Shown here: piece by piece, positions 4,466-62,677 of the stretch
Numbering within the stretch: the stretch's first letter is position 1
Layout: every line of letters starts with the position of its first letter
IMG/VR virus record: IMGVR_UViG_3300020577_013934
Location: 1 to 64,000 of that record
Reading direction: 5' to 3' (one strand)
Origin: a virus
Taxonomy: Duplodnaviria; Caudoviricetes
DNA length: 64,000 nucleotides
Position numbers and translations under genes: made by a program
Notes under the pieces: model-generated
What the model was told of the DNA's origin: nothing
The model's input: the letters and a program-made list of their open reading frames with translations, nothing else
The model's database searches: none

Positions 4466-4552
4466 GCGTCCGCGCGGCCTGATCCCGGCTGAAGGGAGCG
4501 CGCCACGGGGCGCGTTTCTTTCGCCCTCAACGACGTAAAGAAGGAGTGCCTC

Positions 4553-4921
4553 GTGAGCGATGTGAAGACTGTGCACGACAAGGACCACCCGGTGCCCGAG
4601 CCGGTGATCCAGCTGCACGACGAGCCGGTGGTGGTGTGGGGCCCGAAGACGACCATCAACCACCTCGCCGACGCCATGGACAAGGTGAAGGCGTGGCACC
4701 AAGCCAAGGCCGAGGGCGCCAGCGACGCCGCGCTCGCCGCGATCCTCGCGGCCCCGACGCCGCCGCGTGCGGTGCTAAGCCCCACGGCGCTTGAGATCCC
4801 GACGAGGGCCCGCACGCCGACGACGATTCCCGCGCCGCCGGGCGAGGACGTGCCGCTCGCGACCAAGGCGCCGAGCGTGACGGTGAAGCTGCCGAGGCGG
4901 CAGCTCAAGCTGAAGATCTGA
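4553..4921 (+). CDS. Hypothetical protein
   Basis: AAGGAG SD, GTG start. Confidence 0.8.
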   Translation: MSDVKTVHDKDHPVPEPVIQLHDEPVVVWGPKTTINHLADAMDKVKAWHQAKAEGASDAALAAILAAPTPPRAVLSPTALEIPTRARTPTTIPAPPGEDVPLATKAPSVTVKLPRRQLKLKI

Positions 4922-5220
4922 TGAAGCGCTTCATCACCGAGCTCGGCTTCGACGAGATCGCGGCGGCGTTCGTGACGCGCCCGCTGCGCGTGCCGGCGGT
5001 CGTGCTCCGCAGCGCCAACGACGACGCGCCCGCCGTGGCCGTCGTGCCCGGCTTCGGCAAGGTCGGCACGCTCGACGAGGGGCCGACGCCGCAGTTCGTG
5101 AAGACGAAGTTCGAGCTCAAGCCGTACACCGTAAACTTGGACAAGTTACTCTCGTCGGGTAATAATCCCGGCGATGTCCAAGACCCTGATCCTGGGCGTG
5201 ACGGGGCACCGTCCCGATAA
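4921..5220 (+). CDS. Hypothetical protein
   Basis: TGATG-coupled start; 3' end overlaps the next promoter and gene. Confidence 0.5.
   Translation: MKRFITELGFDEIAAAFVTRPLRVPAVVLRSANDDAPAVAVVPGFGKVGTLDEGPTPQFVKTKFELKPYTVNLDKLLSSGNNPGDVQDPDPGRDGAPSR
5134..5166 (+). promoter_or_regulatory. Phage promoter/operator: palindrome AACTTG-GA-CAAGTT over a TTGGAC -35, 17-nt spacer, TAATAAT -10
   Basis: Near-identical to the element at 26920-26951; 7 nt before ATG 5174. Confidence 0.65.
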
Positions 5221-6852: not shown

Positions 6853-7148
6853 CCACCTTCGAGAAGTGGCGCACGTACTTCAAGCTCAGCTGGAGCTGCG
6901 GCCGGCACTCCAACATCCCGTGGCACTGCATCCTCTGGTACGCCACGGCGGACTGGTGGCTGCGCTGGCCGCAGTGGTACCGCGCGCTGATCGCGCCGCG
7001 CATGGCGACGCACGGCGCGCGGTACCGCTACATCCCGTGCCCGTGGTGCCTGCTCGTACGCCGTAAACCGAACCGCGTCGCGCGCTGCCCCGACACCTGC
7101 TACCGACGCGAGTGGATTCTCGCTCGCCGCGCAAGGAGACCGACGTGA
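6849..7148 (+). CDS. Hypothetical Trp/Arg-rich protein
   Basis: ATGA coupling, 99 aa. Confidence 0.65.
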   Translation: MTTFEKWRTYFKLSWSCGRHSNIPWHCILWYATADWWLRWPQWYRALIAPRMATHGARYRYIPCPWCLLVRRKPNRVARCPDTCYRREWILARRARRPT

Positions 7149-8118: not shown

Positions 8119-8429
8119 ACGACGTAAAGAAGAAGCCCAAGAAGCGCCACGCGTGGACGCAGCGCCCCGGCACGCACCACCTTCGATGGTGTCCGCGCTG
8201 CGGCGTCTACGAGGACACCAAGACGCTGCGTCGCGAGTACTTGCGCAGCGTCTCGCTCGTCAACCGGACGATCTATCGCCCGATGGGACAGCCAGGGCGC
8301 TTCTACACGAAACAGCCGGCGTGCACGCCTCCGCCCGAGGGCACGCTCATCTCGCCCCCGCCACCGTGGGGTGGTGACGCGCTGACCAACGCCGTGAAGG
8401 CGCTGGCCGGCGAGAAAGCGACGACATGA
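8115..8429 (+). CDS. Hypothetical protein with HxW...CxxCG zinc-finger-like motif
   Basis: GTGA coupling; RHAWTQRPGTHHLRWCPRCG. Confidence 0.65.
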   Translation: MNDVKKKPKKRHAWTQRPGTHHLRWCPRCGVYEDTKTLRREYLRSVSLVNRTIYRPMGQPGRFYTKQPACTPPPEGTLISPPPPWGGDALTNAVKALAGEKATT

Positions 8430-9350: not shown

Positions 9351-9423
9351 ACGTCGTAAAGTGCGTGCGCGTCCCGGTATAAGTCCTTGGAGCCACACGT
9401 CGTGGTTCTCCAAGGAGATCTCC

Positions 9424-10791: not shown

Positions 10792-11864
10792 GCGATGAAC
10801 CACGAGGAGCCGTTGGAGTACAGGTCGATCGAGCCGTAACCTACCTCGATCGCGACGTTCGCGCTGCCCTCGATCGTGCCCGACGGCGGCTGGATCAGGA
10901 TCTGCACGGTCGGCGACGCTGACCCGGTCTCGTCTTTGATCTTGATCGGGAACATGCCGTTGACGGCCGATGCAGCGGGCAGCGTTAGCGTGCGCGTCGC
11001 GGTCAGCCCCGTGACGCGAACGAGATTCGCCGTCACGGCGATCGTCGCGTCGGTGTCGTTGACACTCTGCTGGCGAAACACGAGGCCGGTGTTGATGTTT
11101 GCGGGCTTGCCCGTGTTCGCGTCACCGATCTGAAGGGTGTCGGTATTATCTAATCCGATGAGGATTCTTAGATTCGTACCGGCACTGTCCTGTGAGAGAA
11201 CCGGGACGAAATTTTTGAGCAGGATGCTCCCCCCGATGCCGGCTGATAGATTGGTACCGAGATCGAGCGCGCCGTCAGTCTGTACGGTGATGCGTGTGAC
11301 GCTGTTGATCTGGAGCCGGTATTGGTATGACGTTGGAACGTTGAATGTGAGGTTGTCGACGCCAGCGATCGTGCCCGGCGTGCTGACGATCAAGCCGTCC
11401 AAGAACGTCTTCGTCCCGCTGAACGACTGTGCTCCTGACGTAACGACACCTGTTTGGCCGCTGCCAGCTGGATTGACTGCGACTGTGACGTTGCCGGAAA
11501 GTGCAACGGGGGTGTTTACGCCGTTCACAGTCACCGGTGAAGTTCCGGTGACTGTTCGACTTGGGGGTACTGCGTTGGTGTCGACGTAGTTTTTCGTCGC
11601 CGCGTCGCTGTTGGCAGAGGGTGGACCCAAGTTGATGACACGGAATCCGCCGAGGCTTTGATCTCCTGTAAAAGGCACGGTGCCGTCGGCCAGGATTACA
11701 CCGCTCGGTGCGGCGGCGTCGACGTAGCCCTTTGTCGCTGCATCGCTGATTGCAGCAGGTGTCGCCAGTCCCGTAAGTCGCTGATTGCCGACGTTCCAAA
11801 TACTCGTCAGCGGTGTTGAGCCGTCGATGCGGACGAAACCTTGAGGGGATCGACTGACAAACAT
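10788..11864 (-). CDS. Tail fibre-like protein
   Basis: Two DAATKxYVD fibre repeats, T/G-rich, TRTLTLPAAS...IKIKDE C-terminus; TACACT 5 nt upstream of ATG. Confidence 0.75.
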   Translation of the reverse strand: MFVSRSPQGFVRIDGSTPLTSIWNVGNQRLTGLATPAAISDAATKGYVDAAAPSGVILADGTVPFTGDQSLGGFRVINLGPPSANSDAATKNYVDTNAVPPSRTVTGTSPVTVNGVNTPVALSGNVTVAVNPAGSGQTGVVTSGAQSFSGTKTFLDGLIVSTPGTIAGVDNLTFNVPTSYQYRLQINSVTRITVQTDGALDLGTNLSAGIGGSILLKNFVPVLSQDSAGTNLRILIGLDNTDTLQIGDANTGKPANINTGLVFRQQSVNDTDATIAVTANLVRVTGLTATRTLTLPAASAVNGMFPIKIKDETGSASPTVQILIQPPSGTIEGSANVAIEVGYGSIDLYSNGSSWFIA

Positions 11865-11956: not shown

Positions 11957-12511
11957 ATGCGCCTCATCGAGACGATCAAAAGCCGTACAGCACTTGCCAT
12001 TGGCGCAGCGATGCGCAACGCGCTCAATGAACTTCTTCCTATTGGTCGTGCTTCGCTGAACATCAAGCACCAGCGTGTACGCCGTAAAGGTGAACTCTAC
12101 GTCCTGGAAGATGTGGGGCCTGAAGAGAAGGTATGGAATCTCATCACCAACGCAGGGCGCGACTACCTGCATCTTCAGGGTTACGGGACGGCAGGGCTCG
12201 GAACCAACGGGCTGAACTACATCGCGCTGTCGAATGACACTGTTACGGAAACGTCAGCATCAACCACGCTGTCCAACGAGATCACGCTCAATGGTCTTGG
12301 GCGTGCGCAAGGGACATATGCCCATACGGCAGGAACCAACACAACGACACTCTCGCGTGTGTTTACAGCGTCTGGTACTCAAAGCGCACAGAAAGCAGCT
12401 CTTTTCACGGCTTCTTCGTCAGGCACGATGAACCACGTCCTCGGATTTACGCAGCGTTCTTTGATCTCGGGGGACACGTTGTCTCTCACATTCACGATTA
12501 CATTGGGTTGA
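11957..12511 (+). CDS. Putative tail/baseplate-associated structural protein
   Basis: AAGGAG SD; NLITNAG, YIALS, LFTASSSGTM and GDTLSLTFTI motifs typical of phage tail-fibre-associated proteins. Confidence 0.7.
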   Translation: MRLIETIKSRTALAIGAAMRNALNELLPIGRASLNIKHQRVRRKGELYVLEDVGPEEKVWNLITNAGRDYLHLQGYGTAGLGTNGLNYIALSNDTVTETSASTTLSNEITLNGLGRAQGTYAHTAGTNTTTLSRVFTASGTQSAQKAALFTASSSGTMNHVLGFTQRSLISGDTLSLTFTITLG

Positions 12512-15338: not shown

Positions 15339-15892
15339 TGGCTACGGGTGTGCGGATCTACTGGGAAGCCGATACAGACCCTGATGTGCAGAATTACGAG
15401 ATTCGTCGAGGGCCGCAAGAGGGGCAACCTATTGTCCTGTTGCAGGTCGTTCCTCATGCGATTCCGGGCCTTAATTGGTCTGCGACGAAAAATAGATTCT
15501 TTTACGACGACCCACAAGGGGGTCCCGTGAACGTCTATCAGGTTACGGCTGTTTCTTCTGGTGGGGTGGCGATCGGCCAGACAGATGTCTTTACGCCGTT
15601 TGGTCCGACGGCTGCGACACCAATGAAGATTGCCGTGGATCACAACTATGGAGGGCCAGACGCTCTCCGGTTTGTGACCGAGAGTGGTGTTGGTATTCCA
15701 GACGCAGATGTGCGTGTGTACACCAAACCCGATTATGACGCGGGACGTTTTGCAGCGCCTATGTATGTTGTTCAGACAGATGACCAAGGACGCTGGCGCC
15801 GACCTGCGTTCTTGGATGCAGGGTTGGATTACGTCCTTTTGATGGAGAAACGTAGCGCTTACGTGAGTCAACCTACGCAGATCACTGTTTGA
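15338..15892 (+). CDS. Putative structural protein with Fn3/Ig-like and carboxypeptidase-regulatory-like domains
   Basis: IYWEAD..DVQNYEIRRG, YQVTAVS, GIPDADVRVY, TDDQGRW motifs. Confidence 0.7.
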   Translation: MATGVRIYWEADTDPDVQNYEIRRGPQEGQPIVLLQVVPHAIPGLNWSATKNRFFYDDPQGGPVNVYQVTAVSSGGVAIGQTDVFTPFGPTAATPMKIAVDHNYGGPDALRFVTESGVGIPDADVRVYTKPDYDAGRFAAPMYVVQTDDQGRWRRPAFLDAGLDYVLLMEKRSAYVSQPTQITV

Positions 15893-17602: not shown

Positions 17603-18160
17603 ATGAACCTCACCAACCAGCCCGCCTATCAGGCTCGCCACCCCAAGTCCGTTCTCGTCACGCCGGAGTTTCCGCACGGCGCGGCGGCGCTCAACGCGCT
17701 GTTCGCCAACGACGCGTGGGAGCGCGACGAGGACATCAACGACACGATCGGCGAGGAGGTCGATCTGTCCACGGACGAGGCTCTCAAGAACTTCCACGCA
17801 GGCCCCGGCGAAAAGACCAGCCATCGCCTGCGCTGGCGCGCGCCGATCGAGACGCTGCGCGGGCCGTGCTCGCTCTGGAAGGAGACGCACGAGGTGACCA
17901 GCACGCAGACGGCGCTCATGGCCACGCTGCGCGAGCGCCGGAACGAGGCGCCGCCTGCGTCCGTCGACGACGCGGAGCGCCCGGCCGAGGCGCCGCCGCT
18001 CCCGAAGTCCTATACGGCGTACAAGCTCGTCTGCGAGGTCGACAACCTGCTCGACGGTGACTTCCAGACGCTCACGCGCATCGCCGACCGCCACAACTGC
18101 TCGCTCGGCGCCGAGGCGCTGGGCGACAAGGTGCTGCTTCAGCTCGCGTTCGTGCGATGA
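17603..18160 (+). CDS. Hypothetical protein
   Basis: 185 aa, GC3 bias. Confidence 0.8.
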   Translation: MNLTNQPAYQARHPKSVLVTPEFPHGAAALNALFANDAWERDEDINDTIGEEVDLSTDEALKNFHAGPGEKTSHRLRWRAPIETLRGPCSLWKETHEVTSTQTALMATLRERRNEAPPASVDDAERPAEAPPLPKSYTAYKLVCEVDNLLDGDFQTLTRIADRHNCSLGAEALGDKVLLQLAFVR

Positions 18161-19718: not shown

Positions 19719-20047
19719 CCAAGCCCAAGACCAAGCCCAAGACCAAGCCGCCCACCCGCTACGATCAGCCGATCAAGATCTTCTGAGCCGTCGTCGTGCG
19801 CTTCGGTCCGAAGTGCGAACGCGGCTTTCTCCCCGTCTACTCCGTCGCCGACGAGCGCGAGGCCGAGGACCTGCTCCTCGCCGCGTGCGGACGCAACCTC
19901 GACGGCGAGTTCGTGGCCAAAGAACTCGCCGCGCACCAGACCCTCGACAACCTCAAGGCGTTCAGCGACCGCCTCCACGCGGTCCACGCGCACCTGCGCG
20001 AGCGCGGCAAGTGCCGCTGCGTCGCCCCCGAGCCCCATACGCCGTAA
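19715..20047 (+). CDS. Gene with in-frame TGA (19784-19786); candidate selenoprotein or nonsense pseudogene
   Basis: AAGGAG SD plus GTG 19715; frame continues after TGA to TAA 20047; SECIS-like hairpin 19798-19816. Confidence 0.6.
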
Positions 20048-20111
20048 ACCTCCGGGCGGGGCAGGGTACAAGTACATAGACAGGAAGTACTGCCCCTCCA
20101 AGGAGTTCACC

Positions 20112-21725: not shown

Positions 21726-21774
21726 CACGCTTACTTACGCCGTAACGCCACACCTAACACGGAGCACACAACCC

Positions 21775-23842: not shown

Positions 23843-23868
23843 GGCCGTTACGCCGTATACTTCGGGCC

Positions 23869-25260: not shown

Positions 25261-25547
25261 TCACGCGGTCCGACCTGCCCGTGCCCCAGCAGGCCGTGCA
25301 GGCGGCGCACGCCGCCCAGACCTTCGCCGGTCGCCACCCCGGCGACTACGCGCAGACCACGCTCGTCGTGCTCACCGTGCCCGACGAGCCGGCGCTCCGG
25401 GCACTGCGCGCACGCTTCGAGGCCACGCCCGCGCGCCTCGCCGCGTTCCACGAGCCCGACCGGGGCGGCGAGCTCACGGCGTTCTGCGCGGCCGGCGCCC
25501 CGGCGCGGCGGCTGTGCGCGCGCCTGCCGATGGCCTTCACGCCGTAA
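25239..25547 (+). CDS. Peptidyl-tRNA hydrolase, Pth2-like
   Basis: YVITRSDL..QAVQAAHA, LVVLTVPDE..L, FHEPD.GGELTA. Confidence 0.85.
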   Translation: MDDRCYVITRSDLPVPQQAVQAAHAAQTFAGRHPGDYAQTTLVVLTVPDEPALRALRARFEATPARLAAFHEPDRGGELTAFCAAGAPARRLCARLPMAFTP

Positions 25548-25567
25548 AGCCGCCTACGCTTTCGTGC

Positions 25568-27150: not shown

Positions 27151-27164
27151 CGTTCTTTACGGCG

Positions 27165-43791: not shown

Positions 43792-44577
43792 CTACAGCGC
43801 GTTGACCGTGGAGTCGCCGAGGCCCGTGTCGCCGAACGTGCCCATGCGGTTGTAGGTCGGCTCGGGGAAGACGTTGGGCGCGAGGCCGAGCACCGCGTCC
43901 ATGAGCGCGCGGCCGACGGAGGGGACCTCCATCGCGTCCGACGCCTGATAGGGCAGGATGCGGTCGCAGAAGCCGCTGACCTGCTCCATCACCATCGCCT
44001 GTCCGGCGCCGATCTGCATGCCCCACGAGTTGATCATGCAGAGCTCCAGGTAGCAGCTCGCGACGAGCGTGCGGCTCTTGGTGCGCATGATCACGGCCAT
44101 GCCGAACGGGATGTAGAACAACTCCGAGTCCAGGTTGATGAAGAACTGGGAGTTCGGCGCGCCCTCGAACGCGGCCGGGTCGTCGAACTGGTCGGGGTTG
44201 AGTCCGCCGACCTCGACCGCGTTGTGGTACAGCGCGCGCAGCAGGTTGCGCCCGTTGATCATCACGCGCTGCACGTTCCACGACGACTGCGATTTGCCGC
44301 GCAGGAAGTACGAGCGGCCGGAGCCGATCGCCATCATGGGCGTCACGGGCGCCTGGGTCTGCACCCCAAACGCCGTAAACATCCCGAGCGCCATCAGCGT
44401 GCGGGGCGTGTTGCGCTCGGGGCGAGCGACCGAGCGACGCGCCGGACCGGCGAGCAGCAGCGTGTCGTCCGGGTGCGCGGCGTCGTACGTCGCGTTGTCG
44501 AGGATGCGCTCGACGTGGTTCCGCTGAAGGGACCACGTGGCCAGGGACTTGGTGACGCCGATCGGGTACGTGGGCAT
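43792..44577 (-). CDS. Putative tail tube protein
   Basis: AIGSGRSYFLRG, GRNLLRALY, CYLELC..M.QVSGFCDRI; located between sheath and spike. Confidence 0.7.
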   Translation of the reverse strand: MPTYPIGVTKSLATWSLQRNHVERILDNATYDAAHPDDTLLLAGPARRSVARPERNTPRTLMALGMFTAFGVQTQAPVTPMMAIGSGRSYFLRGKSQSSWNVQRVMINGRNLLRALYHNAVEVGGLNPDQFDDPAAFEGAPNSQFFINLDSELFYIPFGMAVIMRTKSRTLVASCYLELCMINSWGMQIGAGQAMVMEQVSGFCDRILPYQASDAMEVPSVGRALMDAVLGLAPNVFPEPTYNRMGTFGDTGLGDSTVNAL

Positions 44578-48388: not shown

Positions 48389-48443
48389 GTGGTGTCCTCT
48401 CCGGTGTCGGCTGAAAGATAGGATCTCTTTACGGCGTGAGGTT

Positions 48444-49971: not shown

Positions 49972-50645
49972 GGCTGCGGCGGCTCCACCGGGGACTCCTG
50001 CGCGTCGCCCGTCGACTCGGCCATCTGGTCGAACGCCCGCCGGAGCGCGTAGCGCTTGGTCTCCTGACTGCCCGCGAGCTCGTGCGCGCGGTTCCACGCC
50101 CGCGACTCCGGCGGACGCGGGTCGATGTGGTCGGTGTCGAACTTCCCCTCGGCCAGGGGGGTGACGTTGGTCTCGGGCGACAGGCCCGCGCCTTTCACGA
50201 GCGTGCCCACGTCCTGGCCGCTCGGCGACATCTCGCGGCCGAGCACCGTCGCCAGCACGGGGCGGCTCCGCCCCGGGACGGCCTTGAACTGCGCGTAGCC
50301 GAGCACCGCCCCGTCGCGCCCGCGCAGCGGCACGTGGTAGCTGCCCGGCGGTAGGCCCAGCGCGTCGACGGCGCGCTGGAGGGGCCGCACGTTGCTGCGG
50401 GCGAACGGCGTGCGTTCCTCCATGCGGTCGTGCGCGTGGGCGGCACCCTTTACGGCGTACGGGGGTCCCTCGTCGCGCGGGCGGTCGTACCAGTTGAAGA
50501 AGTCGTTGGCGTCGAACGACGTGCCGACCTCCAGCGGGACCTGCTCCTTGCGCGACGCCCCGTTCGACCGGCTCGCCGGGTAGGCGGCGCCGGTGCCCTC
50601 GGCCACGGGCACGAGGTGGGTGAGGCGGCGCTCGGTCGGCGTCAT
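49968..50645 (-). CDS. Hypothetical K-x-A-type virion protein
   Basis: Start MTPTERRL; C-terminal RRAFDQM motif. Confidence 0.7.
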   Translation of the reverse strand: MTPTERRLTHLVPVAEGTGAAYPASRSNGASRKEQVPLEVGTSFDANDFFNWYDRPRDEGPPYAVKGAAHAHDRMEERTPFARSNVRPLQRAVDALGLPPGSYHVPLRGRDGAVLGYAQFKAVPGRSRPVLATVLGREMSPSGQDVGTLVKGAGLSPETNVTPLAEGKFDTDHIDPRPPESRAWNRAHELAGSQETKRYALRRAFDQMAESTGDAQESPVEPPQP

Positions 50646-53022: not shown

Positions 53023-53399
53023 GGCGACGAGATCCGTTCGCGAAGGAGTGTAAGACCCCGCACCGCACGCAGCGCGAGGGCGGACTTCTCGAAGAGCCGC
53101 ACGGCGCGCGAGTCCTCGGCGCTCCGTACGGCGTGCGCCAGCTTGCGCAGCGGCGCACCGGGACGGTCGTCGTCCCCCGGGACCTCCCGCGCGGGCGGCG
53201 CGGGCGGCGGCGAGCGAAACCCGGCCGTCTTTACGGCGTTCAGGCTCGCCCACGTGATCTGGGGCTCCGGCAGGTCGCGTAGCGCGCCCGCCAGGGCCCG
53301 GACCTGCCCCGACACCGTCTCGGGCAGCGCCGAGGCGGTCTTGGTCGCCGGGCGGGGCGCCCGGGGCAGCGTGCGCAGGACTTCGTCGAGGGTCGGCAT
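53019..53399 (-). CDS. K-x-A-motif protein
   Basis: TKTAS, VKTAG, RKLAH, EKSAL. Confidence 0.75.
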   Translation of the reverse strand: MPTLDEVLRTLPRAPRPATKTASALPETVSGQVRALAGALRDLPEPQITWASLNAVKTAGFRSPPPAPPAREVPGDDDRPGAPLRKLAHAVRSAEDSRAVRLFEKSALALRAVRGLTLLRERISSP

Positions 53400-54209: not shown

Positions 54210-56117
54210 TCAGCGCCAAACGCAGCGGCTGATGTTCGCGACGAGACGTGCGACGTTGAGGCCCGGCGCGCCGTGCGCGTCGCCGGTCTCGACCTCCGCG
54301 CCTTCGACGAGCGCGGCGACCTTGTCGGCCAGCGGCGTCGCCGCGAGCCATCGAGCGTACGCCGCGCCGCCCGCGCTCGCGACCTTTGCGAGCAGCGCGG
54401 CGTAGTCGGCGCGGCCGACGCGCTCGACGAGGTCGGCGGCGGCCTTGTGCACGACGTCGGCCCGCGCGGGACGCGCGAACGCCGAGACCTTCACGAACTC
54501 GGTTCCGCCCGAGACGGGCACGCCCTGGTCCGTGAGGTAGCGGCCGTAGCGGTAGGGTCGGATGCGCTTGCGCAGCGCGCGCTGCGTCGCGTAGCCGGCC
54601 GCGAGGCCCGCCGGCAGCGACCAGACGCCGGCCCCGGGGCCGAGCGCGGCGCGCAGGCCGCCCGCGTAGAGCGCGCCGAGCAGCGCCGTCGAACCGAGCT
54701 GCGCCTTCACGTCTTCGTTGTGCGCCGCCATCGCCGCGCCGCGCGTCGTCTGGTACTGGCGCCCCGTGTAGGGGTCGGAGAGCGTGAACACGTCGGTCTT
54801 CGCCGGCTCGGTCGCGCGGTAGTACGCGCCCGGTCCGATCGGCAGCTGGCCGAGGTCGCTCGGCGCGTACGCTTGCTGGCGCAGGTAGTCGAGGACACCG
54901 CCGCGCTTCTCGACCCACGCCGCGAGCGGGTCCACGAGCTCGTCGTTTACGGCGTCGACGCGCAGCGCGACGAGCGCGCCGAGCTTCGCCTCGACGTCCG
55001 GGTAGCGCGCCACGACCTCGGTCAGCACCGGCTCCAACGCGACGAGGCGGTCGAGGTCCGCCTCCGTCGGCGCGACGCCCGCCGTCTTGGCGAACAGGTC
55101 GATGACTTCGCCGGTCGCGAGCACGACGCCGCACGCCGCGAGCGACGACAGCGTGCGTGTCACGCCCGCCGTCTTCGCCGCCGCGTAGACGGCGTCGGGC
55201 AGGCGGGGCCACTCGCCGACGAGGCTGGCGGCCTGTACGCCGTAAGCGGTGCCGAGGGCCTCGGCCGTCTTCGCGGCGCCGCTGCGGATCTCGATCGCGC
55301 GCGCCTCGTACGCCCGCAGCTGCTCGCCCAGGTCGGCGCTGTAGCGCAGCGGCGCTTCGCCCGCGACCTTCTTCATCATCCACCCCGTGGGGTCCGCCGG
55401 GCGGAACACGAAGCTGATGTCGAAGAACTTCGGACTGGGGTTGAGCACCGCGACCTTGCGGCCGTCGGGCAACACGCGGCGCAGCATCCGCAGCGCGTGC
55501 TCGCAGTACTGCGCGCGCGTCGGGGCGCGGTGGCCGCAGATCGTGCAGACGTCCCACCGGACGTGGCACCCCATCGAGACCGCCGGGAAGTCGCCGTCGC
55601 CGATGCGCTGCGCGATCTCCGGGTCGCGGCCGTTGACGAACTTCAGCAGCAGCTCGACCCGGTGCATGTACGGGTTGAGCAGCGCCTTGTTGATCCAGCC
55701 GAGCGACTTCGACGGGTCCTTGTTGACGTGGTGCTTGTAGATGCCGCCGTGCTTCTCGAACGACTGGTAGTGGTGGTGCAGCGTCTCGGGCTCGGCGATC
55801 CAGCCGTCGAGCGAGCCGGTACACTCCGGGTGTCCGCACGACGCGAGCTCGCCGACCTTGTACGGCGCGTTCGGGAAGCCGTCGCCGTTGCGGTTGTCGT
55901 CGTAGAACTCGTACGCGCCGAGCGCGTTGACGAGGATGTACGAGACGCCGGCCTCGGGCTGCACGGTCGTCAGGAAGTCGTAGAGCGGGGAGTGCCCCTC
56001 GGCGAACGCGCGCTTCTCGATGCTCAGTCCGCCGCGTGGCCCGCGCCACGCGACCAACTGCACCGTCGGCTCCCCGGTCTTTGGGAAGCGCTCGTCCAGT
56101 TCCAGGAGCTTGTCCAT
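54210..56117 (-). CDS. Prohead (capsid maturation) protease
   Basis: NRNGDGF, HHVNKDP, NPYMHRVELL, VSMGC..DVCTICG..YCEH, FFDISFV..PAD. Confidence 0.8.
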   Translation of the reverse strand: MDKLLELDERFPKTGEPTVQLVAWRGPRGGLSIEKRAFAEGHSPLYDFLTTVQPEAGVSYILVNALGAYEFYDDNRNGDGFPNAPYKVGELASCGHPECTGSLDGWIAEPETLHHHYQSFEKHGGIYKHHVNKDPSKSLGWINKALLNPYMHRVELLLKFVNGRDPEIAQRIGDGDFPAVSMGCHVRWDVCTICGHRAPTRAQYCEHALRMLRRVLPDGRKVAVLNPSPKFFDISFVFRPADPTGWMMKKVAGEAPLRYSADLGEQLRAYEARAIEIRSGAAKTAEALGTAYGVQAASLVGEWPRLPDAVYAAAKTAGVTRTLSSLAACGVVLATGEVIDLFAKTAGVAPTEADLDRLVALEPVLTEVVARYPDVEAKLGALVALRVDAVNDELVDPLAAWVEKRGGVLDYLRQQAYAPSDLGQLPIGPGAYYRATEPAKTDVFTLSDPYTGRQYQTTRGAAMAAHNEDVKAQLGSTALLGALYAGGLRAALGPGAGVWSLPAGLAAGYATQRALRKRIRPYRYGRYLTDQGVPVSGGTEFVKVSAFARPARADVVHKAAADLVERVGRADYAALLAKVASAGGAAYARWLAATPLADKVAALVEGAEVETGDAHGAPGLNVARLVANISRCVWR

Positions 56118-56152: not shown

Positions 56153-56902
56153 CTAGGGACGACGAGGCCGACCCGCGCGGGCGGCGGCGGCGGTCTGCGC
56201 CTTCATGAGCTCCATGCGGGCGGCGTGCAGCTCCGCGTCGCGCGCGAGCTCGGCGGCCGAGCGGTTGCGCACCTTCGACTGCTGCGCCAGCGCCTTGAGT
56301 CGCGCGTCGTGCAGCTCCTGCGCGCGCGTGCCTTCGAGCGCCTTGGCGGCGTCGGCGGCGCGACCCTCGCGCATCTCGGCGCGCAGCTGCCCGGCGCCGT
56401 GGCCGAGCATCGCGCCCATCGCGGCGCCCGGCAGGCCGAAGCGCAACGCGCCGCGCAGCCGGTCGTCATCGTCGGCCGCCGCGCCGAAGCCGGCGCCCGC
56501 CAGCCCGCCGCCGACCGCGCCGACCGCTGACGGGTGGTTCTTGAGCGCCGCCAGCAGGCTCGACGCGAAGCCGGCGTTCTTCTGGAAGCGCGCGAGGTCG
56601 CGCAGCGCGGCCTCGGCGTTGAGGTCGCGAAGGAACTCGACTTCGGGCGTCGTGTACGCGCCCTCGGCCGCGAGCTTGTCGAGCGTCGCGTCGACGAGGG
56701 CGGCGCCGACGAGCGACGCGACGAACGCCTCGCGCGTCGCGCGGTCCTCGCTCAGCTTGGTGCCGGCGTCGCTCGTGGCCCACGCGTCCAGGGCGAGGCC
56801 CGCGAGCCCGTCGAGCAGCGAGTCGCCGCGACGGAGGGCCGCCGACTTGACGGCGCCCCACAGCACCCGCGCCTCGCGCGTCTTTACGGCGTTATCCGTC
56901 AC
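56153..56902 (-). CDS. K-x-A / glycine-zipper protein
   Basis: QKNAGF; GAVGGGLAGAGFGA, GAAMGAMLG. Confidence 0.75.
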   Translation of the reverse strand: MTDNAVKTREARVLWGAVKSAALRRGDSLLDGLAGLALDAWATSDAGTKLSEDRATREAFVASLVGAALVDATLDKLAAEGAYTTPEVEFLRDLNAEAALRDLARFQKNAGFASSLLAALKNHPSAVGAVGGGLAGAGFGAAADDDDRLRGALRFGLPGAAMGAMLGHGAGQLRAEMREGRAADAAKALEGTRAQELHDARLKALAQQSKVRNRSAAELARDAELHAARMELMKAQTAAAARAGRPRRP

Positions 56903-57122
56903 CGTGCAGCTCCTTGTAGGCCGCGATGCCGTCGCGGACGATTCCCTGGTTGACGTGGTCGACGGCGACCTTCACCGCCAGGGCCTTGACGACCTCGGGC
57001 AGCGTCGGCGCGGCGGGCGGGTAGCCGCCGTTGCGGTGGAGCACCTCGAACGCGAGCTTCGCCCAGCCGTGGGTGCGCAGAGCCGCGCGGAGGCGCGGCG
57101 AGACGAGGGTGTTGATGTTCAT
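56892..57122 (-). CDS. Small hypothetical protein
   Basis: ATGA coupling; AKLAF. Confidence 0.65.
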   Translation of the reverse strand: MNINTLVSPRLRAALRTHGWAKLAFEVLHRNGGYPPAAPTLPEVVKALAVKVAVDHVNQGIVRDGIAAYKELHGDG

Positions 57123-58435
57123 GGCGTGCCGCGTCCCTTCGCGTTCTGGATGAACTTCTCGGTCTCGGTCATCAGGCGGATCGTCGCGAAGTCCGGTCCG
57201 GTGCCGTGCATCTTCGACATCGTCGCCTGCCGCAGGAACGTCCGCGTCGCGAGCGGGTTCTTGGCGATCGACGGGGCGAAGGTCTTGAGCGTGTGGAACG
57301 TGTCGGCAAGGCCCTGCGGGTTGTCGCGGTGCTCAGCCTGGAGCATCTCGTCGCCCTCCAGCGCCTGCTGGAACGCCGCGCGGTGCTTCGGCTCGTCGTA
57401 GAGCTTCTTCTTCAGCACCTTCTGCACGGCGTCGATCGGCTCGCCGACGAACTTCGTCGCGAGCTGGTTGGCCAGCGAGTTGGCCATCGCGCCCTGCATC
57501 GTCGGGTACACCGGCGCGTACGCCGCCCGCTTCTCCTCGGCGAACTCGTCGTAGCTGGCGTACACCGCCATCGTGGGCATCGGCGTCGCCATGTTTTGCT
57601 GCGCGTTGGTCATGTAGTCACGCATCCGGGCGTCCTGCTCGGCCGCAGCCGGTCCTCCACGGAGCATAGACGTGCCGAGCGCCGCGCCACCAGCGGCGAG
57701 CGCGAGGGGCGCCGCGTTGCGCGAGAGCCAGCCCTGACCGGCCGGCGGGTTTACGCCGTTTGGCACGCCGGCCGAGGTCGCGCCCGCGCTCGGAATCGCG
57801 CCGCTCGGCGGAACGTAGGGCGTCTGCGCGGCCGGGGCCTGCGTGGCGGGCGCAGACGCCGCCGGTGCCTGCGCGCGCGGCGCGGCGGCTGCCGGCGCGG
57901 CCGGTGCGGGTGCGTGGTGCGCCGGCACGGCGTGACCGTGCATCTGGAGGTACTGCGCGGGCGTCATCTTCGAGTAGTCGATGTGCCCCGCGAGCGGGTC
58001 GGCGTGCAGCCCGTGCTGCTGCGCGACCTGCGCGGCGTTGCGCAGCTCTTGCTCACCCTGCTGCACCTGCCGGAAGCGCGAGACGGCCTTGTCGGCGGCG
58101 CGCGTCGCGCCGAACTCCTGCTTCGCGCCCGACAGCGCGCCGCGCAGCTGCTGCCCCGCGCGTGCGAGCAGGCCGGGGCTCTTGTCGCCGACGCCGACGC
58201 CCATGGGCAGCGGTTTGACGGCGTTGCCGACGATGTTGAGTGGCAGCGCGTCGGCGGCGTGCAGCGTGTTCACGGCGCTCTGGAGCGCCGCGCGCGACTT
58301 CTGGTTGTGCGCGACCTGCGACGCGCCCGCGCGCATGCCGCGCAGACCGGCGCCGAGCTGGTGGAAGATGTTGGCGTTCTTCTCCAGCGCCGCGTCGATG
58401 TGCGCCAGGACCGCTTCGGCGGTGGCGTCATCCAT
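57119..58435 (-). CDS. K-x-A-motif internal virion protein
   Basis: EKNAN, EKRAA; C-terminal APSIAKNPLATRTFLRQ. Confidence 0.8.
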   Translation of the reverse strand: MDDATAEAVLAHIDAALEKNANIFHQLGAGLRGMRAGASQVAHNQKSRAALQSAVNTLHAADALPLNIVGNAVKPLPMGVGVGDKSPGLLARAGQQLRGALSGAKQEFGATRAADKAVSRFRQVQQGEQELRNAAQVAQQHGLHADPLAGHIDYSKMTPAQYLQMHGHAVPAHHAPAPAAPAAAAPRAQAPAASAPATQAPAAQTPYVPPSGAIPSAGATSAGVPNGVNPPAGQGWLSRNAAPLALAAGGAALGTSMLRGGPAAAEQDARMRDYMTNAQQNMATPMPTMAVYASYDEFAEEKRAAYAPVYPTMQGAMANSLANQLATKFVGEPIDAVQKVLKKKLYDEPKHRAAFQQALEGDEMLQAEHRDNPQGLADTFHTLKTFAPSIAKNPLATRTFLRQATMSKMHGTGPDFATIRLMTETEKFIQNAKGRGTP

Positions 58436-59307: not shown

Positions 59308-60012
59308 TCAGCCCTTGATGATCTCGTCCCGCGTCACGCCGAGCTCCTCGGGCGTCTTCGTAGAGCTTTTGCTCGTGAGGGCGAACTCCAACGCCGCGAG
59401 CGCGTCGGAGACGCGGTTGGCGGCGGTCGCGCCCTTGATCGTGGCGGCCGTCGCGGCGGCGGCGCGCCCCCACTTGAACGACTCCTGGGCGACCTTGCTG
59501 GTGATGGGCTTGCCGCGATGCTCGAACGCGCGGCTGTGCGCCTCGCCCATCATGTCCTCCAACACCACCTGGGGGTCGGGTGCGGTGCGCGGCGTGAGCC
59601 GGTAGCGGTCGAGCAGACGCGGCGCGCCCTCCACGAGGGCCAGCTCGTAGATCTCGCGCTCGTCCTTCGTCAGCCGCAGCTGCTGGACGTACTGGCGCAT
59701 CGCGAAGACGCTGCCGAACACCGCGCGGTCGAAGAAGAGGGTGCGGTAAACGGCGTAAACCCCCTCGCGCAGCTCCAGCGCCGCCTCGACCTCGGTGTCT
59801 TTGGCCACGCACAGGCACAGCGCGTCCATGACGTGGCGGTACGACGAGCGGAAGATCTCGTAGGCCGTCGTCACGACCGGATCGTCCGCCTGACCGCGCA
59901 GCACGCGGAAGAGCGCGAGGTCGAGCGCCTCCGTCGGCGGCTCAACGCCCGTCTTCTCCGCGAGCGCCGCGATCTCTTCGTACTTGTGCCATGGCGCGAC
60001 AGCGGGCTGCAT
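59308..60012 (-). CDS. Hypothetical protein
   Basis: 234 aa; GC3 bias. Confidence 0.8.
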   Translation of the reverse strand: MQPAVAPWHKYEEIAALAEKTGVEPPTEALDLALFRVLRGQADDPVVTTAYEIFRSSYRHVMDALCLCVAKDTEVEAALELREGVYAVYRTLFFDRAVFGSVFAMRQYVQQLRLTKDEREIYELALVEGAPRLLDRYRLTPRTAPDPQVVLEDMMGEAHSRAFEHRGKPITSKVAQESFKWGRAAAATAATIKGATAANRVSDALAALEFALTSKSSTKTPEELGVTRDEIIKG

Positions 60013-60022
60013 GATGAGTTGA

Positions 60023-62677
60023 TTATGCTGAGCGCGCACCAGCCGGCAACAGCTGGTCGCCGTACTGCTCCAGCGACAGCACCGCGTCGCCCAGCATGCG
60101 GAACACGTCGCGCACGACCTGCTCCAGCGAGGTGTACGCCTCCTCGCCGATCCGCTCGCGGATCTGCTTGCTCTTCACGTAGAGCAGCAGCAGCGTGCGC
60201 CCGAGGCGGTCGAGCGCGTTGTCGAGCGACGGCGTGTAGTTCTGGAGCAGGTCGCGGATGCTGCGCACGTTGGCGAGCGACGCCACGGCCGACGCGTCGA
60301 ACACGCCGTCCTGCTCCAGCTGCATCGCCTGATCCAGAAACTGCGGCGCGACCTGCTCGCCGAAGAGCGCCGGGTTCGGCTCCTTCGGCATCACGGGCTG
60401 CGGCATCGGCGCCGGCTGGCCGCCCATGGCGTTCGGGTCGCCGCCCTGCATCGCCATGGCGTTCGGGTCGCCGCTCTGCATCGGCGTGCCCTGCATCGGC
60501 GCGCCCTGCATCGGAGCGCCCTGCATCGGCGCGCCCTGCATCGGAGCGCCCTGCATCGGCGCGCCCTGGCCCTGCGGCGCGCCCTGCGCGGACATGCCGG
60601 GCACCGGCGCCATCGCCGGCTGACCCATCACGTCTTGCGCGGGGCCCGCCATCATGCCCGCCGCGCCCATCGGCGCAGCCATCGCGCCGCCGCCCTGGTC
60701 GATGCCCTGGGCGCGGCCCTGAAGCTCGGTGAGCATCTGGCGCATCTGGTCGAGGCTCTGCTGCTGCTGGTCGATCAGCTGCAACTTCTCCGAGATCGCG
60801 AGGTCGATCCCCGTCGGCGGCGGGGGGGCCTGCATGGCGGCCATCGCGTTCGGGTCCATGGCCATCGCGTTCGGGTCCTGGTTCGGGTCCGCGCCCGCGT
60901 CCTCGCCCCCGCCGCCGCCCTTCGGTGCCGCCGTCTTAGGCGTCGCCCACGCGTTCAGCGGCAGGCCGTTGGACACGGCCTCGACCACGCGCGAGGCGTC
61001 CGGGACGCTTACGCCGTACAGGTTCGCGACCTTCACCACCGCTTCGAGCACCGACAGCTTGGCGCGGTCGTCGCCGACGCGGAAGCCGTCGTGGTCGCGC
61101 GCGACCTTGATGCGCGCGGCGCCGGTCTTCTCGATCTGCGCGTCGAGCGCGCGCCCGATCAGCTGCGGACGCGCGAGCACGTCGCGCTCGGCCAGCTGCT
61201 CCTTGATCGGGAACCAGCGGTAGCTCTGCGGGAAGACCATCACGTTCTGCGCGGGCGGCGCCACGATCTTCGAGCCGCGCATCTTCTTCGAGATCACGGC
61301 CGTCATGTTGTAGCCGGCGCCGAACGAAACCATGTCGCCGCGCGCGGTGGGCTGCTCGGCGAAGAACGGCTCCGTCGCGCGCAGCGTCAGGTCCTCGGAC
61401 GAGATCAGCACGCCCTGCTGGTTGGCCTGCGGGCTCTCGCGCGTCATCGACTTGAGCATCGCCGCGACCTCGTCGAACGACTCGCTCACGACGGGCTCCG
61501 CAACGAGCTCCGACACGCACCCGCCGCGCCCGTCGGCGAGCAGCACGAGGTACTTGCGGTCTCCGCCACCGTAGGGCGGCGGCACGTCGTTGATCGTCTT
61601 GCGGTTGTACGCGCCGTACGCCATCGCCTGATGGTCGGTCTTCGGCGGCGAGACGCAGACCGGGTGCGGCACGACCAGCGCCTTCGCGCTCGTGCCGTCC
61701 GCGAGGTACACGCGGTAGACGCCGGGGTACTCCGGGGCCGTCAGCGCGAGCGTCTCCTCGGCGCCCACGGCGATGTCGTTGAGCGCGCCGCTGCGGCGGT
61801 CCTTGATGTAGAAGCCGTGGTAGCGCAGCGCCTTGTACGCCTCGGGCACGTCGCCCGGCGCGATCTCCTTGCGGATCTCCTGGAGCGGCATGCCCGCGAC
61901 CGCGAGGTAGACGTCGTGCTTCTGCGGCACCTCGGTGCGGAACTCCGCCGCCGTCTTCGCGGGCGCCTCCGCGACCGCGAACGCGTCGCGCAGCGTCGCC
62001 GCGCCGTAGACCTCGGCCATCTTGCGGAGGTAACGCGGACGCTTCGCCAGCCAATTCGCGAACGCCGTCTTCACGCCGTCCGGCATGCGACTCACGACCT
62101 CGGGGAAGACGTGCGGGGCGTCGTCCGCCGCGCGCTTCTCGTTCTCGTAGGCCGCGCGGAACACGTCGAGCAGCTCGTCGTCGGTGATCGACGCCGGGTC
62201 GAACTCGTCGGCGTAGCTGTAGCGTCCCGTCGTCGGCGGGACCACGACGTTGCGGATGTCGACGTCGGTGTTGAGGTCCTTCGGCGGCTCGATGCCCTGG
62301 CCGAGCGAGCTGACGCCGCCCGACGTGGCCTTCTCGATCCACTCGGTCGTCAGCGGGTAGAACCGGTCCTTCGACCGGACGTACATCATGTCGAGGGGCT
62401 TTACGGCGTTATCTGCGATCACCGCCGGCACGAACAGCACCTCGGGTCCGCGCTTGAGGATGAACGCGCCGACGCCCTCGCCGGCCGGCGCGTCGGTCGC
62501 CAACACGCGGAACGACACGAGGTCGCCGTACAGCTCGGGGTGGGTCTTCTGGAACGCCCGGTACGCGAGGTCCGAGAAGCCCTTGGAGAAGAGCTCCTCC
62601 TCGTCGTCGGGGCTCGTGGGCTGTGCGAAGCCCTGCGTGCGGGGCGACTGCGAGAGTGGGAAGCCGTTCATGGTCAT
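60023..62677 (-). CDS. Large head-morphogenesis-associated K-x-A protein
   Basis: GAGGAG SD; VSFRVL..GEGVGAF..VPAVI.DNAVKPLD N-domain; low-complexity M/Q/G/A/P linker. Confidence 0.85.
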   Translation of the reverse strand: MTMNGFPLSQSPRTQGFAQPTSPDDEEELFSKGFSDLAYRAFQKTHPELYGDLVSFRVLATDAPAGEGVGAFILKRGPEVLFVPAVIADNAVKPLDMMYVRSKDRFYPLTTEWIEKATSGGVSSLGQGIEPPKDLNTDVDIRNVVVPPTTGRYSYADEFDPASITDDELLDVFRAAYENEKRAADDAPHVFPEVVSRMPDGVKTAFANWLAKRPRYLRKMAEVYGAATLRDAFAVAEAPAKTAAEFRTEVPQKHDVYLAVAGMPLQEIRKEIAPGDVPEAYKALRYHGFYIKDRRSGALNDIAVGAEETLALTAPEYPGVYRVYLADGTSAKALVVPHPVCVSPPKTDHQAMAYGAYNRKTINDVPPPYGGGDRKYLVLLADGRGGCVSELVAEPVVSESFDEVAAMLKSMTRESPQANQQGVLISSEDLTLRATEPFFAEQPTARGDMVSFGAGYNMTAVISKKMRGSKIVAPPAQNVMVFPQSYRWFPIKEQLAERDVLARPQLIGRALDAQIEKTGAARIKVARDHDGFRVGDDRAKLSVLEAVVKVANLYGVSVPDASRVVEAVSNGLPLNAWATPKTAAPKGGGGGEDAGADPNQDPNAMAMDPNAMAAMQAPPPPTGIDLAISEKLQLIDQQQQSLDQMRQMLTELQGRAQGIDQGGGAMAAPMGAAGMMAGPAQDVMGQPAMAPVPGMSAQGAPQGQGAPMQGAPMQGAPMQGAPMQGAPMQGTPMQSGDPNAMAMQGGDPNAMGGQPAPMPQPVMPKEPNPALFGEQVAPQFLDQAMQLEQDGVFDASAVASLANVRSIRDLLQNYTPSLDNALDRLGRTLLLLYVKSKQIRERIGEEAYTSLEQVVRDVFRMLGDAVLSLEQYGDQLLPAGARSA
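60424..60567. repeat. Coding tandem repeats: about 6 x 15 bp (GAPMQ) and 2 x 30 bp (MQxGDPNAM)
   Basis: CCCTGCATCGG(C/A)GCG units. Confidence 0.9.

Follow-up and report, generated by a model that had tools for sequence, protein, structure and literature searches.

A single short word recurs on both strands along a tailed-phage contig, frequently inside genes, and the question it raises is whether the word is a DNA-level signal and, if so, what would read it. The window analyzed here is the first 64,000 nucleotides of a 77,622-bp contig, which represents about 40% of a jumbo phage chromosome of ~180 kb carrying roughly 70 sites. The phage encodes a multisubunit RNA polymerase (RNAP) with a fusion of beta to the N-terminal portion of beta′, and most of its proteins have no family assignment.

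A word under selection

A first-pass annotation had reported 25 exact copies of ACGNCGTAAA in the window and about 0.2 predicted by chance. All 25 were found, with positions and strands as reported, and dinucleotide shuffles give an expectation of 0.23 +/- 0.49; the whole contig holds 31 copies. The edges of the word are sharp, W-ACG-S-CGTAAA-S (10-12 bases), with A and T equally frequent at position 0. The two strands of the contig together contain only 42 CGTAAA and 77 TAAA, and 31 fall within the motif. The near-copies that had also been listed exist, and the one-mismatch class is itself in excess (44 against ~9 expected), several of its members being symmetric TAC-GSC-GTA cores; TACGSCGTA occurs 15 times where 0.6 are expected. 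The full palindrome TTTACGSCGTAAA has no occurrence in three genomes of the motif lineage, and the word in this lineage is only half-symmetric. Sites are given below in window coordinates, with their state in two relatives, G001 (85% DNA identity) and G002 (72%).

4530..4539 (+), ACGACGTAAA, intergenic, 13 nt ahead of start codon 4553; region unalignable to G001 or G002
7058..7067 (+), ACGCCGTAAA, within weakly called ORF 6849-7148
8119..8128 (+), ACGACGTAAA, immediately 3′ of the TGA stop of gene 7648-8118
9351..9360 (+), ACGTCGTAAA, intergenic, 63 nt ahead of start 9424; intact in G001
11515..11524 (-), ACGGCGTAAA, in a low-GC stretch (11-16.8 kb) without confident gene calls
12079..12088 (+), ACGCCGTAAA, full context GTACGCCGTAAA; intact in G001
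15590..15599 (-), ACGGCGTAAA, lost in G001, with a new copy there at a distance of 172 bp
20039..20048 (+), ACGCCGTAAA, overlaps the 3′ end and stop codon of gene 19796-20047; intact in G001
25539..25548 (+), ACGCCGTAAA, its TAA is the stop of gene 25239-25547; next start 19 nt on
26269..26278 (-), ACGGCGTAAA, intergenic
27156..27165 (-), ACGCCGTAAA, abuts the stop of patatin-like gene 27165-27854(-); intact in G001
31069..31078 (-), ACGGCGTAAA, antisense in gene 30465-31136(+); intact in G001
35908..35917 (+), ACGCCGTAAA, close to the 3′ end of gene 35630-35926(+); intact in G001
37132..37141 (-), GTACGGCGTAAA, stretch without confident gene call; intact in G001
39767..39776 (-), ACGCCGTAAA, sense, phase nAC-GNC-GTA-AAs, gene 38068-39852(-); intact in G001, one change in G002
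44370..44379 (+), ACGCCGTAAA, antisense in gene 43792-44577(-); intact in both
46560..46569 (-), ACGCCGTAAA, sense, middle of 1079-aa gene 45149-48388(-); intact in G001, lost in G002
48428..48437 (-), ACGCCGTAAA, intergenic, 39 nt ahead of the start of the 1079-aa gene; intact in G001, one change in G002
50449..50458 (-), GTACGCCGTAAA, sense, gene 49968-50645(-); intact in both, flanking synonymous sites differ
53230..53239 (-), ACGCCGTAAA, sense, gene 53019-53399(-); intact in both
54946..54955 (-), ACGCCGTAAA, sense, protease-like gene 54210-56117(-); lost in G001, intact in G002
56883..56892 (-), ACGCCGTAAA, 5′ end of gene 56153-56902(-); intact in G001, one change in G002
57750..57759 (-), ACGGCGTAAA, sense, gene 57119-58435(-); intact in G001
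59750..59759 (+), ACGGCGTAAA, antisense in gene 59308-60012(-); intact in both
62400..62409 (-), ACGCCGTAAA, sense, 884-aa gene 60023-62677(-); intact in both
3266..3278 (unstranded), weaker symmetric copy TATACGCCGTACA with TAC-GSC-GTA core; paired one-mismatch matches on both strands
18011..18023 (unstranded), weaker symmetric copy with TAC-GSC-GTA core; one-mismatch matches, core enrichment
21734..21746 (unstranded), weaker symmetric copy CTTACGCCGTAAC, the near-copy listed earlier at 21735
23847..23859 (unstranded), weaker symmetric copy, listed earlier at 23848
34280..34292 (unstranded), weaker symmetric copy TGTACGGCGTAAT, listed earlier at 34283
55234..55246 (unstranded), weaker symmetric copy TGTACGCCGTAAG; one-mismatch matches, core enrichment
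61008..61020 (unstranded), weaker symmetric copy CTTACGCCGTACA, listed earlier at 61009

Enrichment survives a codon-aware null in which synonymous codons are shuffled within each gene: 19 genic copies are seen against 1.13 +/- 0.99 expected (maximum 4). GTA makes up 2.2% of Val codons here, yet the motif is the exact spelling of 11 of 23 [NYDH][AGDV]V[KN] peptides. Most sense genic copies use the cheap reading phase nAC-GNC-GTA-AAs (11/13 with the final gene calls, 13/13 with the first-pass gene caller). Related phages keep the sites, the motif being intact at 23 of 25 alignable sites in G001 (background 0.31) and 10 of 16 in G002 (background 0.043); in these alignments motif columns are 0.81-1.0 identical versus 0.72-0.82 for the flanks. 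Since the word is kept in G002 despite its far lower GC content (49% versus 68% for this contig), it tracks the phage and not host composition. As the first-pass annotation had claimed, the word is a real DNA-level signal, maintained by purifying selection on the DNA in all reading contexts.

More distant lineages carry other words of one design (GTACG-S-CGTAC, TTCACG-N-CGTGAA, TTCAC-NNN-GTGAA and TTAACC-N-GGTTAA). A variant search made without prior assumption returned GTACGSCGTAC in G004, G007 and G013, TTCACGNCGTGAA in G003 and G009, TTCAC-NNN-GTGAA in G011 and G012, and TTAACCNGGTTAA in G005. These sister words are perfect palindromes with parS-like half-sites (...AC, GT...) 3 bp apart. 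Canonical ParB sites are likewise symmetric, unlike the word of this lineage. Four sister lineages use the canonical half-sites TTCAC/GTGAA of parS, TGTTTCAC-GTGAAACA (PMC7383237).

Spacing, orientation and gene context

The mean interval between sites on the contig is ~2.4 kb. The near-periodicity noted earlier holds in that the sites are spread more evenly than chance would give (CV 0.54, P ~2e-4), but with gaps of 0.56-5.5 kb they are over-dispersed rather than periodic. Even spacing is found in 11 genomes (CV 0.49-0.67; reversed-pattern controls, 0-2).

Promoters of known jumbo-phage RNAPs are short words close to the start site, and this phage has its own RNAP, with a sigma70-type factor encoded in relatives, so a promoter or other transcription signal for that polymerase and sigma must be weighed. 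On this contig 24 of 31 copies lie on the strand of the nearest gene (24:7), sense copies outnumber antisense ones inside genes (13:6), and six copies fall 13-63 nt upstream of a start codon, a few of them (13-39 nt) in promoter-like placement. The earlier count of ~20/25 copies co-oriented with transcription thus stands loosely here but fails in the two closest relatives, where genic sense:antisense ratios are 17:19 (G001) and 15:14 (G002). Moreover, antisense copies are the best conserved class, ~60-75% of copies are intragenic and often mid-gene, the next start is 13 to several thousand nt away, even spacing disregards gene boundaries, and the sister words are palindromic. We therefore judge a promoter improbable, and the earlier remark that the word is not a simple promoter is borne out by the start distances and the balanced orientation in relatives.

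A polar, strand-specific signal could be Chi-like (RecBCD/AddAB-type), KOPS-like (translocase) or a primase site setting Okazaki-fragment starts. The ~2.4-kb spacing resembles Okazaki-fragment length, such signals are known within coding sequence, and '+' copies prevail at 4-25 kb of the contig and '-' copies at 26-77 kb. Runs tests for strand polarity are nevertheless non-significant in G000, G001 and G002 (P = 0.33-0.62), palindromic sister words carry no polarity, and known Chi, KOPS and primase words have only 3-8 nt, which leaves this reading highly improbable. T5-like and tf-like phages are known to carry localized nicks at consensus words, and the word, being short, specific and dispersed, might be where a site-specific nickase (like those of T5, tf and LUZ24) or a DNA-modifying enzyme acts; PD-(D/E)XK nucleases are in fact encoded beside the ParB gene described below. 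An enzyme cutting or marking the palindromic sister words, however, would do so on both strands, and no DNA methyltransferase accompanies the motif consistently, PF01555 occurring in G002 alone and PF00145 in none of the genomes. Neither activity accounts for the selected high, even density either, which makes such targets quite improbable. Together, the failure of co-orientation in relatives and the non-significant polarity disfavor the promoter, nick, Chi/KOPS and primase readings. Among the interpretations first proposed, nick sites, Chi/KOPS signals and transcription-linked orientation would all require an asymmetric polar word and find no support, while sites for a DNA-organizing protein come close to the reading favored below.

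A ParB-type protein in the relatives

The first-pass annotation held that no gene annotation explains the word; this is superseded by a ParB/KorB/Noc-type gene located in eleven related contigs, canonical in 11/11, with weaker ParB_N matches in two more (G006 and G014). The protein has a CTPase-type N domain, ParB_N, and HTH_ParB (profile match) and a C-terminal domain, with Pfam scores near or below curated cut-offs in this lineage. The PDB entries closest to it in sequence are Spo0J, Noc and ParB; in structure, its AlphaFold model (pLDDT 77) resembles M. xanthus ParB-CTPgS, Noc, KorB and Caulobacter ParB-parS, with TM 0.70-0.74 of target. GxxR is present in 12/12 sequences and the ENxxR box is intact in 10/12, its first residue being altered in two (TNHER, ANLTR). 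The first 34 residues are predicted to be disordered and are rich in T, E and K. ParA was found in none of five contigs searched, nor was a ParA-binding motif found in the phage ParB sequences. The gene is absent from this contig; in syntenic G001 it lies ~2 kb past the equivalent of the contig end, and a search for a contig extending this one returned none. It is adjacent and convergent to the sigma gene in 11/11 genomes. Grouping by ParB sequence, like grouping by HTH recognition-helix sequence, agrees with the motif types, a co-variation confounded by phylogeny, as any phage protein would cluster alike.

We propose that the word is probably a lineage-specific form of a dispersed parS-like array, the docking sites of the phage's own partner-less ParB/KorB/Noc-type protein. 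We infer binding from the shared occurrence of protein and word, from the design of the sites and by analogy. If the protein works as in ParB-parS, Noc-NBS, KorB-OB and BisD-bisS, the HTH of a ParB dimer would recognize the WAC-GSC-GTA core together with the GTAAA arm; the N-terminal gate would close when CTP binds, and the clamp would then leave the site and slide a limited distance until CTP hydrolysis. Because the sliding range would be limited, dense loading sites, one each 2.3-3.4 kb, could keep the whole chromosome clamp-covered, and this need for full coverage may be why density and even spacing are conserved across lineages with different words. The purpose of such a coat is the least certain step. 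We lean toward a role in controlling or marking phage DNA genome-wide for the phage's own sigma-dependent multisubunit RNAP, because of the constant pairing of the ParB and sigma genes and the KorB and BisD precedents; that the coat compacts or sequesters replicating phage DNA is nearly as likely.

Another phage-encoded dimeric DNA binder, for instance a global repressor or an organizer of the nucleoid-associated, MatP- or SlmA-like kind, might occupy the sites instead. Many dimeric HTH proteins typically have sites of this sort, palindromes 11-13 bp long whose central base is free, unseen binders may exist among the many proteins without a family, and selection, spacing and lineage-specific variants would suit any co-evolving binder equally. 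Yet four lineages use canonical parS half-sites, ParB homologs recur across the relatives, and no further conserved sequence-specific binder was identified; we consider such a binder unlikely, though deserving some weight. Use of a ParB-type clamp in this way was found described for plasmids, and no publication on it was found for such phages.

Comparison with known systems

The genome harboring the motif resembles the mReC (metagenomic RNAP-encoding Caudovirales), large uncultured tailed phages with cellular-type beta and beta′ (PMC7481178). Searches of the text of that paper turned up no mention of promoters, and the word 'motif', where found, refers to sequence motifs of RNAP rather than to DNA words or ParB. 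The beta-beta′ fusion distinguishes the present phage.

Plasmid RK2 (~60 kb) has 12 OB sites. KorB of this IncP plasmid, a CTP clamp of the ParB family, loads at several dispersed 13-bp OB palindromes, some far from promoters, and controls transcription genome-wide by sliding (PMC11790492, PMC13768133); the operator, TTTAGC(G/C)GCTAAA, has a 6+1+6 layout with central S (PMC13768133). The phage array likewise has dispersed sites of this layout on a mobile element, and the predicted phage ParB matches the KorB fold (8qa9, TM 0.71). In contrast to the several OB sites of RK2, the phage has ~31 on 77.6 kb, mostly intragenic; KorB has a ParA partner, IncC, and clamp-locking KorA and TrbA, whereas the phage contigs searched lack ParA; and the element here, a jumbo phage that looks virulent, has its own RNAP and an only half-symmetric site.

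About 70 NBS sites occur on a Firmicute chromosome. Noc, a ParB paralogue that like the phage protein is partner-less, has many sites scattered over the chromosome rather than clustered and spreads in a CTP-dependent manner, according to the account in PMC7383237 (Wu et al. 2009 cited there), and is among the top structural matches (7nfu, TM 0.70). Noc tethers DNA to the membrane by an N-terminal amphipathic helix, where the phage protein has its predicted disordered segment, and the half-sites of the NBS, a 16-bp palindrome, abut instead of lying 3 bp apart as in the phage. ParABS (ParB/Spo0J) shares family, domain order and nucleotide-binding motifs with the phage protein, and identical half-sites with the sister lineages, but its sites cluster near one locus, unlike the dozens of evenly dispersed phage sites with a 3-bp spacer, and it has the ParA and ParA-binding peptide that the phage contigs and proteins searched lack.

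BisD of ICEclc is a ParB-like CTP clamp that loads at intragenic parS-like palindromes with a free central base, slides tens of kb and activates promoters with a partner (PMC12409273). It parallels the phage ParB as a clamp on a mobile element with sites inside genes, but has only two bisS sites, and it comes with a ParA-like gene and an additional activator domain; the many phage sites would stand in for its long-range sliding.

Counts, spacing and genomic setting of the word

The window, which is the first 64 kb of a single virus contig (77,622 bp, 68% GC), has 25 copies of the 10-bp word ACGNCGTAAA, at every coordinate and on every strand that the first-pass annotation had reported, where dinucleotide-preserving shuffles give 0.23 +/- 0.49 copies; the whole contig holds 31. 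The flank logo has sharp edges and reads W-ACG-S-CGTAAA-S. On the two strands of the contig CGTAAA is found 42 times and TAAA 77 times, 31 of each lying within the motif. Copies with one mismatch are enriched as well (44 against about 9 expected); the near-copies noted earlier are present among them, and several are symmetric TAC-GSC-GTA cores, TACGSCGTA itself having 15 copies for 0.6 expected. Two other enriched 8-mers, TTGCGGAT and AAGCTCTA, were set aside as genic peptide or codon artefacts.

Codon-aware null. Genes were modelled with a self-trained codon-usage gene caller, and synonymous codons were then shuffled within each gene, which keeps the protein and the codon usage, including the rare GTA codons contributed by the motif. 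The enrichment persists under this null, a control that the first-pass annotation had proposed: 19 genic copies are found on the contig against 1.13 +/- 0.99 (maximum 4), and 36 against 2.3 and 29 against 3.9 in the two closest relatives. Only 2.2% of the valine codons on the contig are GTA, yet 11 of 23 [NYDH][AGDV]V[KN] peptides are encoded by the exact motif spelling. The reading phase nAC-GNC-GTA-AAs, which costs only one rare codon, is used by 11 of the 13 sense genic copies (13/13 with a preliminary gene caller). The array also explains why GTA and AAA codons, odd for a genome of 68% GC, occur here.

Spacing. Copies are more evenly spaced than random, both on the contig (CV 0.54, P about 2e-4) and in the close relative G001 (P < 5e-5). 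The earlier description of the signal as near-periodic overstates this, since gaps range from 0.56 to 5.5 kb.

A separate 22-bp element, AGTTTACCGCGTACGGTAAACT, lies at window positions 23180-23201 and 30438-30459, one copy being the reverse complement of the other, with a 4-nt centre between 9-bp inverted arms. Each lies between genes, its end 2 nt (ATG at 23204) or 5 nt (ATG at 30465) upstream of a start codon. The GGTAAA half-site of the element also occurs in a minor variant of the motif, ACGCGGTAAA, of which there are 7 copies. The element may act as a hairpin or an operator, or be a composite site of greater strength.

Besides an SNF2 helicase and the features below, few proteins of the contig match any family.

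Annotated features (window coordinates unless marked as contig)
8441-9199 (+), HAD domain of 'Swiss Army Knife' RNA-repair proteins
15943-16017 (-), tRNA-Asn(GTT)
23426-23773 (+), tmRNA with tag ANDNAMLAAA
25892-25963 (-), amber-reading tRNA with anticodon CUA (ARAGORN label Pyl)
27165-27854 (-), patatin-like phospholipase
32541-33323 (+), inorganic-pyrophosphatase-like domain
contig 65040-66845 (-), C-terminal part of RNA polymerase beta', a separate protein of 601 aa
contig 68050-72594 (-), RNA polymerase beta fused to the N-terminal part of beta', 1514 aa

The fused polymerase gene holds two motif copies at conserved offsets, 499 (antisense) and 2551 (sense). The IMG/VR contigs that encode relatives of this polymerase (33-96% identity) reach 191 kb, and two have terminal repeats and are complete; by that measure the present contig covers about 40-45% of a jumbo-phage genome. 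Megablast of 24 kb of its sequence against 50,697 phage records gave no match. It is similar to the metagenomic RNAP-encoding Caudovirales (PMC7481178); searching the text of that paper brought up neither promoters nor DNA words of this kind.

A 5.7-kb stretch of low GC (window 11082-16793, about 53% versus 68%) is probably a foreign insertion. Its long ORFs at 12825-14030 and 14034-15338 have no Pfam match and misfit the phage codon usage; the stretch is kept in G001 at 74% identity.

Conservation, orientation and sister words

Closest relatives. Two related contigs carry the same word at a density like that of the present contig: G001 (119 kb, 63.5% GC) with 48 copies and G002 (123 kb, 49% GC) with 37, where a reversed-pattern control gives 0-2. 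Being kept across a 20-point shift in GC, the word follows the phage and not host composition. Whole-contig alignment gives DNA identities of about 85% for G001, which is syntenic, and about 72% for G002. The conservation in related phages that the first-pass annotation had asked about is seen in both: G001 keeps the motif unbroken at 23 of its 25 alignable sites and G002 at 10 of 16, for background chances of 0.31 and 0.043 that nine specified bases all persist. Motif columns have identities of 0.81-1.0 against 0.72-0.82 in the flanks, and antisense genic copies are at least as conserved as sense copies. Site gain near a lost site was seen twice (15590 to 15762 in G001; 75712 to 75188 in G002), too few cases to claim compensation.

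Orientation. Co-orientation with transcription, also reported earlier, holds on the contig, where 24 of 31 copies lie on the strand of the nearest gene, but gives way to near parity in G001 (25 same strand, 23 opposite) and G002 (21 and 16). Sense and antisense genic copies number 13 and 6 on the contig, 17 and 19 in G001, and 15 and 14 in G002. About 60-75% of copies are inside genes, and the distance to the next start runs from 13 nt to several kb. Runs tests for regional strand polarity in the three genomes were not significant (P = 0.33-0.62). With near parity of orientation and no significant polarity, promoter, Chi/KOPS and primase readings lose their main support.

Sister words. More distant relatives were scanned for enriched k-mers with no prior assumption of the word. 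The top signal of each was a different word of the same design.

Sister words found by the k-mer scan, with the related contigs that carry them
GTACG-S-CGTAC, in G004, G007 and G013
TTCACG-N-CGTGAA, in G003 and G009
TTCAC-NNN-GTGAA, in G011 and G012
TTAACC-N-GGTTAA, in G005

All follow one template, a half-site ending in AC, 3 bp, and a half-site beginning with GT. Their control counts are 0, their density is one per 2.3-5.4 kb and their spacing is sub-random (CV 0.49-0.67). Genic copies in G004 favour the equivalent reading phase, TAC-GSC-GTA. Example sequences are TGAACGCCGTAAAG for the word of the present lineage and GTACGCCGTAC and TTCACGCCGTGAA for sister words. Sister words are perfect palindromes with parS-type half-sites. 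The word of the present lineage has symmetry only in its WAC-GSC-GTA core, with an extension of one arm; A and T are equally frequent at position 0, and the full palindrome TTTACGSCGTAAA has no copy in the three genomes. The half-sites TTCAC and GTGAA are those of parS, TGTTTCAC-GTGAAACA (PMC7383237), and the KorB operator TTTAGC(G/C)GCTAAA (PMC13768133) has the same 6+1+6 layout, with a central S.

The copies of TTTCCGGAAA in the distant relative G006 were rejected as a dispersed array, since they are iterons clustered locally within non-coding, AT-rich sequence. That stretch (63.2-64.1 kb) holds five TACTTTCCGGAAAGTA palindromes, with NBS-like half-sites, interleaved with AAACGGAAAGTA repeats, a layout suggestive of an origin or of a centromere of the classical, clustered kind.

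The palindromes and the orientation data bear on several readings at once. A promoter of the phage-encoded RNA polymerase should have fixed orientation, a fixed distance to the start and mostly intergenic placement, and copies of the word have none of these, in agreement with the earlier remark that it is not a simple promoter; with palindromic sister words also in conflict, a promoter function is improbable, the bias on the contig notwithstanding. Nick or modification sites, which conflict with the same two lines of evidence, are more improbable still: palindromic variants argue indirectly against programmed nicks of the T5 or tf/LUZ24 type, and a search for methyltransferases conserved with the motif found none. 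The Chi/KOPS-like option of the first-pass annotation fares worst, and a polar traffic signal of any of these kinds (Chi, KOPS, primase) is very improbable given the palindromes and the strand runs.

A candidate ParB-type partner

A protein of 330-450 aa with ParB_N and ParB-HTH domains was found in 11 related contigs; ParB_N matches are weaker in G006 and G014, and the small fragment G010 has none. Among proteins of solved structure, Spo0J, Noc and ParB match its sequence best. The AlphaFold model (pLDDT 77) resembles M. xanthus ParB-CTPgS, Noc, RK2 KorB and Caulobacter ParB-parS (TM 0.70-0.74 on the target). All 12 aligned ParBs have the GxxR box, and ENxxR is unchanged in 10, its first residue differing in the other two (TNHER, ANLTR); in the closest relatives GRRRREG and ENLKR align to GERRYRA and ENLQRE of Spo0J. 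By these alignments the putative nucleotide-binding motifs GxxRxxA and ENxxR are conserved in the family.

In 11 of 11 genomes the neighbour of the ParB gene (45723-46775 in G001) is a convergent sigma70-type gene. The sigma protein, of about 270 aa, has regions 2 and 4 (G001 44893-45717, +), and PD-(D/E)XK nucleases lie on either side of the pair in G001. The present contig lacks the ParB gene; it stops about 2 kb short of the G001-equivalent position, the gene lying 1,975 bp past the equivalent of the contig end in that syntenic, 87-89% identical relative, and on this ground we infer a ParB for the present phage. A metagenome scan for an extending contig with ParB returned only distant, probably bacterial ParBs.

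Partition and occlusion. ParA (PF13614, PF01656) is absent from two complete and three partial relatives, the same profiles matching 14 of 14 cellular genomes, and the ParA-binding peptide (L/F/I)G(K/R)G(L/F/I) is absent from 12 ParBs; both results speak against a ParABS system. Noc-type nucleoid occlusion is disfavoured by a weak, model-only test: ParB residues 1-34 are T-, E- and K-rich with pLDDT < 50, and no helix is predicted where a membrane-targeting amphipathic helix would stand.

Specificity. ParB sequence clusters coincide with motif types, and the HTH recognition helix is invariant within a type and differs between types, both patterns being confounded by phylogeny. Between types ParB diverges faster than the polymerase (20-37% versus 63-71% identity). 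Co-occurrence and this co-variation of HTH and motif make the ParB a candidate reader of the word. Binding by another dimeric protein is unlikely, and we consider the word to be probably the loading site of a CTP clamp of the ParB/KorB/Noc type, encoded by the phage and partner-less.

Proposed mechanism and comparison with known clamps

By analogy with ParB-parS, Noc-NBS, KorB-OB of plasmid RK2 and BisD-bisS of ICEclc (PMC11790492, PMC13768133, PMC12409273), the word would be a nucleation site for ParB dimers, which CTP would shut into clamps; closed clamps would slide away and come off after hydrolysis, and with one loading site per 2-3 kb the entire chromosome would stay covered. Such loading would explain why spacing is even, why single sites are under purifying selection in any reading frame or on either strand, why densities are alike among lineages with different words, and why gene orientation does not matter.

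As the role of the clamp, our first choice is genome-wide transcription control or marking of phage DNA for the phage RNA polymerase, preferred because of the ParB-sigma pair in 11/11 genomes and the precedents of KorB and BisD; DNA compaction or sequestration comes close behind. A more specific version, which we regard as doubtful, is that clamps from about 70 even sites coat the chromosome as a mobile mark of self DNA coupled to the phage sigma factor and multisubunit polymerase. If so, transcription or its timing would be confined to phage DNA without base modification or a phage nucleus, and the conserved ParB-sigma pair would be the genetic trace of the coupling.

If clamp loading is correct, a whole family of large phages with a cellular-type polymerase would use a clamp whose sites, about every 2.4 kb, are forced into coding sequence against strong codon bias, a new viral way to organise, mark or regulate an entire chromosome. 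The site variants, at least five in number and matched by HTH variants, would form a natural series of orthogonal protein/site pairs in which the evolution of ParB specificity could be studied and from which tools could be drawn, for example orthogonal DNA-labelling or loading systems.

Known roles of ParB-type CTP clamps are centromere binding (ParABS), membrane tethering (Noc) and long-range regulation, by KorB in a plasmid and by BisD in an ICE. Our full-text literature search turned up KorB, Noc, BisD and a survey of phage ParB-CTPase folds, but no account of a virulent-looking jumbo phage tiled with an array of ParB-type sites. The self-DNA mark would be a ParB-based counterpart of the 'mobile enhancer' formed by the T4 gp45 sliding clamp or, alternatively, of clamp silencing of the KorB type.
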